From: Escherichia phage EF1-1
Strand: one strand, 5' to 3'
DNA length: 64,000 bases
Sequence record: PQ571289
This document shows, piece after piece, positions 15,485 to 17,571 of this stretch; the stretch's first letter is position 1, and the number at the start of each line of letters is the position of its first letter. The notes beneath the pieces were generated by a model. It had not been told where the DNA came from and did not search any database. It saw nothing but the letters and a program-made list of their open reading frames with translations. The position numbers and the translations under genes were made by a program.

Positions 15485-16444
15485 TTAGATTCCAATAATA
15501 GTTGCTGCTCGTTTATCTTTGGATCTGGTGTTTGCTCTACTACGTGACAAACCTCCACAAGATTCACAACGAATGATATCGAAAGAACTTACCGCAGTGT
15601 GGTATTGCTTACCAGTAACAACATGAACATGATCACTGCCGCAACGAGAACAACGGACTTTCTCATCTGGGTAATAAGCGGATAAGTTAGGATGCTGTGG
15701 AATCCACGGAAGGATTTTCATATACAAATCACGGAGTGAAACAACATCGCCATCATTGTAAATCTGCATACGTTCAAAAGCATCACGATCACCTTCACAA
15801 CATGCTTTCCATAAAGGGAACCCCTCGTTATCCAGTTTTTCACTTTCTGTTTCGAAATATGCTCCCATTTCTTTAAGGGAGTTGGAAGGAAGTGCAAATT
15901 GTTTCTTAGCTGCCTTCAATGTATCAACAACTACATAATTAGAAGGAGGAGCCATATCGTGATATGCAAATCGTTGGTTAATGTATGCACGGTCAAACTT
16001 ATACCCGTTGTGTGCCACAACTACATCTGCCTCATTCAGAAGGTTCCAAAGATCTTGGCAAAGCTCCCAATCATCTGTATGATCAATATCAAAAAGAGGA
16101 TAAGAAGACAAATTCTTACCTTCCACTTCACCAGTATACAGATCAGCAGAAGAATAAGATAACAAATAACCTCTGCGAATTACCTGGTCTGGAGAAATGA
16201 AGGCTTTGAATCGACGGAAAGTATATGCAATCTCTGGTGCAGTTTCAACATCAATAATTTTAATAACTGGTTGTTTCTTTTTAACTGGTTCTTGTTTACT
16301 TCCACTGAAACGTGCAAGGAAATCATTCACTGTGCTTTTTCTTGTTGGGCTACCTAAAACAATTGCTGCAATATTGCGAGAAGACATACCCTCTGCACTC
16401 ATACTAAGGATATCTGCTTTCTGCTCTTCTGTTAATCTGCTCAC
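15485..16444 (-). CDS. DEDD-type 3-prime-5-prime exonuclease with N-terminal HTH and C-terminal zinc ribbon
   Basis: IIDVETAP (Exo I), VVAHNGYKFD (Exo II), YNDGDVVSLRDLY (Exo III); CSRCGS...CESCGG at C-terminus. Confidence 0.55.
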   Translation of the reverse strand: MSRLTEEQKADILSMSAEGMSSRNIAAIVLGSPTRKSTVNDFLARFSGSKQEPVKKKQPVIKIIDVETAPEIAYTFRRFKAFISPDQVIRRGYLLSYSSADLYTGEVEGKNLSSYPLFDIDHTDDWELCQDLWNLLNEADVVVAHNGYKFDRAYINQRFAYHDMAPPSNYVVVDTLKAAKKQFALPSNSLKEMGAYFETESEKLDNEGFPLWKACCEGDRDAFERMQIYNDGDVVSLRDLYMKILPWIPQHPNLSAYYPDEKVRCSRCGSDHVHVVTGKQYHTAVSSFDIIRCESCGGLSRSRANTRSKDKRAATIIGI

Positions 16445-17130
16445 TCTGCCTCCTGTTGTGAGATGTATGACTGAAGCATACTCTCAAATGTTGTATCGTC
16501 ATTATCCCAGCGTTTCATGTATACCAACTGGAAAATTGTTTCTATCCATTCATCTGTTGTCATATGGACTTCTTCTCCATCCCAAGAAGTAAAATTAACA
16601 CCATCTGGGAACCACGAGTAGTAAGTATCTTTAACTGTTTGGAAAAGCTCTGCTTGAGTTTTACAAGCTGAAAGAAGATTAAAACAAGTAATATCTCCAA
16701 ACTTAATATCAAAATCTTGATAGGGTCGGATACTATCTGTTTTATCTCCCATTAGCATCTGATATGCTAACCAGTAACTGCCCCAACCTTTAACTTCTTT
16801 CTTTTTACCTTTATCTACGATCCATATATCGCCAATAGATTCGTCAATAAGAATTATATCTGGATTTTTAAAGACTCCATCTTCTTTGTAGAAATTAAAA
16901 AGAATACTAGGAGTATGTAAACTATCTTTATCTATAGATACCACGATATAAGAAAATTTACCCGTCCTTTTATAATCTTTATAACCTTGGAAACCATATT
17001 TCTCTAACTCATCATCAGCTTCTATTACAGTAACAACATCACCATTGTGGAACTCCACAAGATAATCTTTGGTTTCTGAAAGCTGAAGTGGTTTGATATC
17101 TAATCGTTCAGATTTATATTCTACAGGCAT
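16441..17130 (-). CDS. FEN/RNase H-like 5-prime nuclease (as called from first ATG; conserved region continues upstream to 17571)
   Basis: EADD and SIDKDS motifs; the in-frame upstream segment carries IAAIDYDQIAF; see finding on missing start codon. Confidence 0.5.
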   Translation of the reverse strand: MPVEYKSERLDIKPLQLSETKDYLVEFHNGDVVTVIEADDELEKYGFQGYKDYKRTGKFSYIVVSIDKDSLHTPSILFNFYKEDGVFKNPDIILIDESIGDIWIVDKGKKKEVKGWGSYWLAYQMLMGDKTDSIRPYQDFDIKFGDITCFNLLSACKTQAELFQTVKDTYYSWFPDGVNFTSWDGEEVHMTTDEWIETIFQLVYMKRWDNDDTTFESMLQSYISQQEAE

Positions 17131-17571
17131 TTTGAAGGCGTGTCTGAAAGTTTTTCCTACGCCAATAACTCCGCAATATTTTTCTAAACGTAGATGTTTT
17201 AGAATACCTAAGACTTTTGTTTTAGCTGCTTGGAAGGTGTGTCCGATATCTTCTGGCGGGTATTGCTTATCAATGATTTCGAACTCTTCCTTTGTGAAGG
17301 GACGTTTGTTTTTGGAGGCTCTTTCTGCATTTGTATCTCCTAGCCAACCTCCAATTTTAGTCTTGCTTTTACCCCAAAACTCTGTCTTATTTTTAAATTC
17401 CTTTTGAGCACCTGAAGGGATGTGCTTCGCAATGATTGTTCTTTTCTCTAATGCAGACGCTGCTTGGAAAGCAATCTGATCATAATCGATTGCAGCTATT
17501 GTTTCTTCGTTGACATATAAATGAAGATCTTCAGGTTTAATTAAAATATAACCGCTAATATTTCCCCCTAA

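Follow-up and report, generated by a model that had tools for sequence, protein, structure and literature searches.

A predicted T7 gp6-type nuclease gene of Escherichia phage EF1-1 with a putative AUU start and its counterparts in related phages

The nuclease gene and its product

The analysed window comprises 64,000 nucleotides of Escherichia phage EF1-1 (sequence record PQ571289), a phAPEC8-like coliphage of the genus Phapecoctavirus, and contains, on its minus strand, a gene whose product is predicted from its sequence to be a 5'-3' exonuclease/flap endonuclease of the T7 gene 6 (gp6) type. The reading frame of this gene (17571..16441) is continuous from the TAA at 17574-17572, which terminates an upstream open reading frame (ORF) of 69 amino acids (17572..17781, minus strand), to the TGA at 16443-16441. 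The first canonical start codon, an ATG at 17128..17130, is codon 148 after this TAA, and the 147 preceding codons include no ATG, GTG or TTG, as a first-pass annotation of this DNA had stated. The ATG corresponds to the internal Met144 of the nuclease and serves as the start of the short form of 229 amino acids in most database records; no purine-rich ribosome-binding site was found in the sequence upstream of it. A Shine-Dalgarno (SD)-like GGGGGA can be read directly at 17563..17568 (minus strand), just before in-frame ATT codons at 17559, 17547 and 17541, which had likewise been pointed out. The end of the G-run and the ATT at 17557..17559 are separated by 4 nt. Based on the homologous codons of relatives and on GenBank record KX552041.2 this ATT (AUU) presumably represents the initiation codon, and the coding sequence (16441..17559, minus strand) counted from it comprises 372 codons plus TGA. 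It appears very probable from these comparisons that the locus harbours an intact gene for a 372-residue T7 gp6-type nuclease with an SD-directed start at the AUU 17559-17557.

In 11 other genes of the window ATG, GTG and TTG account for 5.3% of the in-frame codons. Since 147 codons free of canonical starts have a probability of approximately 3e-4 against this background, the start-less stretch exceeds chance. A scan of all stop-to-stop frames revealed no second such lead among the window ORFs of at least 100 codons. In each of the other plausible genes (ORFs that are not contained in a longer ORF of the opposite strand) a canonical start follows the preceding stop within about 27 codons. Between 17131 and 17559 (minus strand) none of 142 in-frame codons is ATG, GTG or TTG in this genus, compared with nine across the remaining 229 codons. 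The N-terminal part contains one to six canonical codons in relatives and three to nine in outgroups starting with ATG. A selected depletion of such codons was considered and rejected, as the trend towards lower numbers than in the ATG clade was too weak and inconsistent.

The stop-to-stop translation matched PHROG 107 ("exonuclease") with its residues 14-371 (E 1e-55), and the N-terminal 147 residues alone still matched this family (E 5e-7). Scans of the full-length protein against Pfam and NCBIfam returned only a chance line for a tail-protein domain (0.098) and no PF02739, which is recorded only for more distant homologues. Sequence searches of the PDB with the single protein and with a 39-sequence profile matched no chain. 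Because the Pfam, NCBIfam and PDB sequence searches were empty, the family was assigned by fold comparison and PHROGs. An AlphaFold2 model generated from the homologue alignment (predicted local distance difference test, pLDDT, 96; predicted template modelling score, pTM, 0.89) displays the PIN-like α/β core fold of 5' nucleases, and the protein was shown to have the fold of the flap endonucleases (FEN). PHROG 107, the alignment with T7 gp6 and this fold support the initial description of the gene product as a FEN/RNase H-like nuclease. Enzymes of the T7 gp6 type act in replication and recombination, where they take away RNA primers and flaps and process DNA ends.

T7 gp6 itself shares PHROG 107 with the window nuclease (E 5e-79 for T7 gp6) and aligns with the 39-sequence family profile over the catalytic core (hhalign probability 91.6%, E 8e-7); in tblastn at 1e-10 the similarity to T7 gp6 was too low to register. 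The motifs R..YK.NR, E(A/G)DD, DKD and GD.TD are common to both proteins, and so is a lead of 24 residues before D25-x-D27 (MALLDLKQFYELREGCDDKGILVMD25GD27 in T7 gp6). They differ in length, T7 gp6 having 300 amino acids and an ATG start compared with the 372 amino acids of the window nuclease, which carries insertions at residues ~40-120 and, according to the model, in a β-hairpin region at ~218-259. The identity of the window nuclease to T5 D15, E. coli ExoIX (Xni), T4 RNase H and other solved FENs is 12-20%.

Residues D25, R139, Y148, K149, E180, D182, D183, D210, K211, D212, D272 and D275 are invariant in 39 homologues, and D27 is conserved in at least 90% of them. The carboxylate cluster for two metal ions, including the N-terminal aspartate, is present as judged from the invariant residues and the aligned motifs. 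The segment IAAIDYDQIAF, which the first-pass annotation had recognised as a conserved N-terminus upstream of the first ATG, is encoded at 17499-17467 (minus strand) and comprises the N-terminal acidic active-site motif IDYDQ, whose D25-Y26-D27 codons (17479..17487, minus strand) were assigned by conservation and by the alignment with T7 gp6. The codon of R139 (17143..17145, minus strand) is also located 5' of the first ATG and belongs to an FRH...YK.NR block, which can be aligned with T7 gp6. A β-strand comprising residues 16-25 leads up to D25 in the model, where the first 10 residues reach a mean pLDDT of 87. Since D25, D27, R139 and the strand leading to D25 are all located upstream of Met144, the 229-amino-acid form can hardly be a functional nuclease.

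Compared with the 83%-identical relative L005 the N-terminal 142 codons show a ratio of nonsynonymous to synonymous substitution rates (dN/dS) of 0.08, and the synonymous sites of this stretch are saturated between lineages. Within the genus its 429 nt differ by 2-5 nucleotides, all of them synonymous, and neither frameshifts nor stop codons occur. The region is a single intact gene under purifying selection.

Position of the translation start in related phages

The DNA of relatives was taken from IMG/VR, metagenomes, Logan/ENA assemblies and GenBank, and the region from the preceding stop codon to the IDYDQ motif was read for each relative. Start codons were set by an SD-spacing rule and by eye, the MAFFT column being misled by a one-residue indel (IS-GY vs I-GY). 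The alignment with homologues, which had been recommended for locating the expected start, places it at ATT 17559, in agreement with the non-canonical start that the first-pass annotation had listed among its options.

An ATT, ATC, ATA or CTG was found at the position of 17559 in 28 of 36 distinct relatives with protein identities of 50-100%, referred to here as the non-ATG clade. ATT occurs in the phage's own genus, in the phi92-like phages and in loci L018, L019, L027-L034 (with L033) and L055; ATC in phiWec181 (L005), L008, KP2025 (L017), L037-L041 and L009; ATA in L010, L020, L042 and L043; and CTG in L011 and L054. TTG is present at this position in the sister lineages L052 and L053 and in rV5-like Vequintavirus, and ATG only in CR3-like phages and other distant outgroups of the Vequintavirinae type, whose proteins open with MGYP or MSYP where the window nuclease reads (I)SGY. 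All members of the non-ATG clade have a GGAGG (GGGGG in the own genus) 4-5 nt 5' of the start. The weak-start tendency of the gene extends past the AUH/CUG clade (H being A, C or U), judging from the TTG codons of the rV5-like phages, L052 and L053. In L052 and L053 the TTG is located directly behind an in-frame stop codon, and the nuclease homologue of the Vequintavirus rV5_ev158 (L066, LR694611.1, position 189) begins with TTG after CAGGAGGG.

Both sides of the start are delimited by the same comparison. The ORF cannot begin earlier because an in-frame TAA directly precedes the ATC in L009, L038, L039 and L041, and it cannot begin later because the codons following the start (G-Y-I-L-I) differ synonymously among relatives. 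The codon preceding the start is unconstrained (AAT, ATT, ATC, GTT, AAC, AGG, AAG, AAA, AGT, TTA or TAA). Numbering from ATT 17559 furthermore gives D25 and D27 for the catalytic aspartates, the same as in T7 gp6. According to a neighbour-joining tree of the 36 distinct sequences and Fitch parsimony the start codon changed at least 10 times; within the non-ATG clade none of these changes leads back to ATG or GTG, even though synonymous sites are saturated between lineages. At the level of the aligned nucleotide sequences, the start position, the ribosome-binding site and the restriction to near-cognate codons were shown to be conserved across the phage subfamily. A regulatory RNA structure was not detected at the initiation region, of which 121 nt fold no better than shuffled sequences (z = -0.07).

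Several other explanations were weighed against initiation at ATT 17559 in an intact gene. An ATG could have disappeared through faulty sequencing or assembly or through a recent mutation that turned the gene into a pseudogene; this explanation has nothing in its favour except the missing canonical start, and its probability seems negligible. The locus is matched at 95-99% DNA identity by 64 GenBank records of Phapecoctavirus (phAPEC8-like myoviruses, Stephanstirmvirinae), all of which match the initiation region and 54 of which share an identical stretch of 60 nt; the identical initiation sequence was also detected in one IMG/VR contig and one metagenome contig. A sequencing artefact can be dismissed, since phage genomes sequenced independently of one another and metagenomes carry the same initiation region. 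The non-canonical state is shared across genera down to approximately 50% protein identity. These genomes together with the selection data exclude the lesion that had been offered as an option. Readthrough of the upstream TAA would yield a fusion protein carrying the nuclease. Within the own genus the two ORFs indeed share a frame with only the TAA between them, and one database protein (P0005) looks like such a fusion. However, the upstream ORF is at a frame offset of 2 in L005, L006 (phi92), L018, L043 and L055, two stop codons (TAG and TAA) separate the ORFs in L009, L038, L039 and L041, and the DNA behind P0005 carries a TAG where the two parts meet and, when translated, does not give the database protein. 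A signal peptide joined to a DNA nuclease would moreover be biologically senseless, so that readthrough is regarded as extremely improbable and, given the frames and additional stops of the relatives, is excluded as a conserved mechanism. The observation that the frame reads straight on from the 69-amino-acid ORF is correct for this phage, but the continuity is coincidental, several relatives having the upstream ORF in another frame. It is scarcely more probable that the 229-amino-acid product from ATG 17130 is functional and the upstream 429 nt are non-coding or decayed. The gene is annotated in this way in most GenBank records and in the protein database. The upstream stretch is, however, under strong purifying selection in the nuclease frame, the short form would be deprived of two invariant residues, D25 and R139, together with the core strand of the PIN-like fold that ends at D25, and no SD sequence precedes its ATG. 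In addition, the first canonical codon of the relatives is scattered from codon 6 to codon 144, as would be expected for chance internal codons. The homologues, in which the N-terminus is conserved, do not show the short form to be the functional protein.

Two further alternatives were considered. A start at a near-cognate codon shortly downstream (ATT 17547 or 17541, ATA 17499, ATC 17490) would shorten the protein by 4-23 residues, and seems improbable. Such codons are present in frame, and gene finders called some relatives from a TTG or ATG in this zone. On the other hand, none of these positions is kept as a start-type codon, the SD sequence would be at least 16 nt away, and residues 2-10 are conserved as protein with synonymous variation and are modelled with a pLDDT of 87; the TTG and ATG codons called in relatives lack an SD sequence and represent internal Leu or Met codons. 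The remaining alternative, which we regard as possible but tentative, concerns the route rather than the codon and is compatible with the preferred explanation: the same ATT may be reached mostly by termination-reinitiation after translation of the 69-amino-acid ORF. The stop of the upstream ORF is located 12 nt before the ATT in EF1-1 and 8-18 nt before the start in most relatives, at a frame offset of 0 or 2, and often forms part of the SD sequence (TAGGAGG). At the AUU of the thrS-infC junction in E. coli about half of the initiation is due to reinitiation (PMC3592434). Against a dominant contribution stand the varying nature of the upstream gene (a small signal-peptide ORF, a methyltransferase in L019, an HNH endonuclease in L054), the same spacing in relatives of the ATG clade, and the strictly conserved strong SD sequence, which favours a substantial de novo component. 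Reinitiation, which had also been among the options first listed, may therefore contribute to the use of ATT 17559, but the comparative data favour the non-canonical start itself. If reinitiation dominates, nuclease output would be tied to the translation of the small secreted-protein gene.

Possible role of the weak start codon

The codons AUU, AUC, AUA and CUG support initiation at a few percent of the level of AUG, and initiation factor IF3 discriminates against them. In EF1-1 a strong SD sequence (GGGGG, corresponding to GGAGG in other members of the clade) 4 nt upstream would position ribosomes on the AUU, which may be read by the initiator tRNA as formyl-methionine by analogy with infC and pcnB of E. 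coli. Strong as the ribosome-binding site is, the weak codon most likely holds the synthesis of the nuclease, which is likely harmful in excess, at a low level or makes it depend on the fidelity of initiation. As the small upstream ORF is terminated 12 nt 5' of the AUU, ribosomes leaving it may also reinitiate there. An N-terminal methionine, a low initiation efficiency, a sensitivity to IF3, a contribution of translational coupling and a selection for low expression are what we infer for this gene.

The nuclease gene seems to join two known kinds, the T7 gp6-like flap nucleases and the genes with a start codon of the AUU class, and both assignments are well supported. It resembles infC and pcnB of E. 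coli in having an evolutionarily conserved AUU-class start preceded by a ribosome-binding site. Judging from the title of a 2002 paper by Binns & Masters, a weak start codon reportedly limits the expression of pcnB. The likeness to infC includes the location of the start a few nucleotides past the stop of the upstream cistron, which in infC reads UAA GGU AUU and where the shares of reinitiation and de novo initiation are approximately equal (PMC3592434). Unlike infC and pcnB, which have a fixed codon, the nuclease gene is phage-encoded and its start drifts between AUU, AUC, AUA and CUG (UUG in sister lineages); unlike infC, it is not expected to form an IF3 feedback loop since its product is a nuclease and not an initiation factor.

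In E. coli AUA, AUC, AUU and CUG form a near-cognate class with 1-2% of the initiation at AUG, which ranks below GUG and UUG (10-100%) and above the other 57 codons, and infC and pcnB are the only two confirmed cases of non-canonical starts (Hecht et al., bioRxiv 10.1101/063800). AUU was found to be 6-8 times weaker than AUG in another study (Osterman et al., PMC3592434). Since the four codons of the non-ATG clade are exactly those of the 1-2% class, a selection for weak or regulated initiation is suggested. The pattern in the relatives suggests that the weakness of initiation, rather than any one codon, has been maintained over deep divergence.

A number of points weigh against a start at ATT 17559 that is kept weak by selection. 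Rare starts do not always entail low expression, as IF3 is abundant despite its AUU codon (He et al., PMC5499595). Active avoidance of ATG is supported only modestly, by approximately 12 saturated lineages with ATH (H being A, C or T) and none with ATG (P ~0.03 in our own estimate under equal base use), and the strength of the start codon may alternatively be simply unimportant for the nuclease gene. The relatives of the ATG clade are equally close to their upstream ORF, so that this spacing is not specific to the clade with weak starts. With 4 nt, the gap between the G-run and the ATT is close to the lower limit of functional spacings, and from the window sequence alone the in-frame ATT codons 17547 and 17541 remain candidates.

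It is doubtful, and in our view rather unlikely, that the near-cognate start is more than a weak start, namely a selected regulatory device in which a strong ribosome-binding site is combined with a codon discriminated against by IF3. If this were true, nuclease synthesis would track the initiation state of the host (IF3 availability, ppGpp, temperature, fidelity altered by the phage) or the translation of the upstream gene, and the locus would represent the first case in a phage of start-codon control as in infC, conserved across the Stephanstirmvirinae and uncultured relatives. A gene expressed in E. coli that keeps a near-cognate start over deep divergence, swapping AUU, AUC, AUA and CUG, may in any case be regarded as a natural experiment. 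Being lytic, able to infect K-12 and part of the BASEL collection, the phages offer a tractable system for the question whether phages make use of the IF3 discrimination between start codons in dosing a nuclease that is potentially toxic.

Database records and neighbouring genes

The annotation of the gene was surveyed in 13 GenBank records of the genus Phapecoctavirus and its sister genus Justusliebigvirus. An ATT start is annotated in one of them, ESCO13 (KX552041.2, AQM50955.1), as a protein of 372 amino acids with a feature for the ribosome-binding site; the genome announcement of ESCO5 and ESCO13 is silent on the start codon (PMC5374246). Our search of the literature on Phapecoctavirus, ESCO13 and AUU or other non-canonical phage starts retrieved no paper describing the nuclease start, so what is known already is its annotation as ATT in this one GenBank record.

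A truncated nuclease is recorded in the remaining 12 of the 13 entries, among them the curated phi92 reference and entries of RefSeq, as well as in the large protein collections. Most of the truncated forms lack the catalytic D25. The form of 229 amino acids is annotated in ESCO5, iGC_PHA_EC001, KP2025, REC, WPEC2 and SF1-1, and a GTG start past the catalytic aspartates in phi92, PaulScherrer, ECGD1 and Paula, the phi92 entry bearing the remark "No RBS identified; weak Prodigal statistics". The annotation of phiWec181 begins at a downstream TTG. In a large protein collection the called N-termini of close relatives are ragged (MIKPEDLH, MHKYV, MNEDT, MVIDYDQ, MAFQ, MEKRS, MKHIASG), which implies that gene callers take whichever canonical codon comes first. 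Gene finders restricted to ATG, GTG and TTG hence fail systematically at this locus. The true gene is recovered by a simple search for GGAGG followed by a near-cognate codon 4-5 nt on, with verification against homologues. The value of the comparison lies in correcting a widespread misannotation, in showing clearly how a near-cognate start has been maintained in evolution, and in a case where the possible dosing of a phage nuclease through its start codon is open to testing.

Other artefacts were noticed in the same records. Spurious small coding sequences labelled "hypothetical protein", one of them on the opposite strand, are located in the true N-terminal coding region of WPEC2 (L061, PV691511.1, 428-652) and PATM (L062, OX090893.1, 296-520). 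The database protein P0005 mentioned above (L017, contig of Logan SRR30397360) consists of the small signal-peptide ORF fused to the nuclease, Gln being assigned to the TAG. Evidently a recoded genetic table was selected in gene calling since the frame stays open across the start-less stretch, so that the absence of a canonical start gave rise to a second type of annotation error.

The upstream 69-amino-acid ORF belongs to PHROG 4641 and has a signal-peptide-like N-terminus; its phi92 homologue gp086 is annotated with a signal peptide predicted by SignalP. It contains two conserved cysteines and an acidic tail (..TEDDDE) and adjoins the nuclease gene across the Stephanstirmvirinae. A homologue is mislabelled as "pili assembly chaperone" in one record.

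A consensus scan revealed a σ70-like sequence TTGACT-17-TATTAT with a TG extension (17821..17849, minus strand, 10 of 12 matches) as a candidate promoter for a three-gene unit. Directly after it and before the small ORF a terminator-like hairpin composed of GCCTACCT-ACTTAATG-AGGTAGGC and followed by TTTTT is located at 17820..17797 (minus strand). Transcripts from the candidate promoter would start within the 5' arm of this hairpin and thereby escape termination; transcripts arriving from the RdgC-like gene, which is located upstream of the nuclease unit, would terminate there. Downstream of the nuclease gene a DnaQ-like 3'-5' exonuclease is predicted (15485..16444, minus strand; Pfam RNase_H_2, E 9.5e-10), whose GTG start overlaps the nuclease stop codon (GTGA), and a second terminator-like hairpin follows this gene at 15479..15461 (minus strand). 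Given its RdgC-like and DnaQ-like neighbours the nuclease gene appears to belong to a compact replication/recombination module.

In a distant part of the window a tail assembly chaperone gene (PHROG 3840, E 4e-55) was detected on the plus strand in the region 43469..44259, with the tape measure gene (PHROG 16051) following shortly after it. A -1-frame ORF that has no canonical start for 47 codons overlaps the chaperone gene. Within the overlap the sequence T_TTT_TTC at 43924-43930 represents a plausible slippery heptamer, and the arrangement corresponds to the classic layout of a programmed -1 frameshift.

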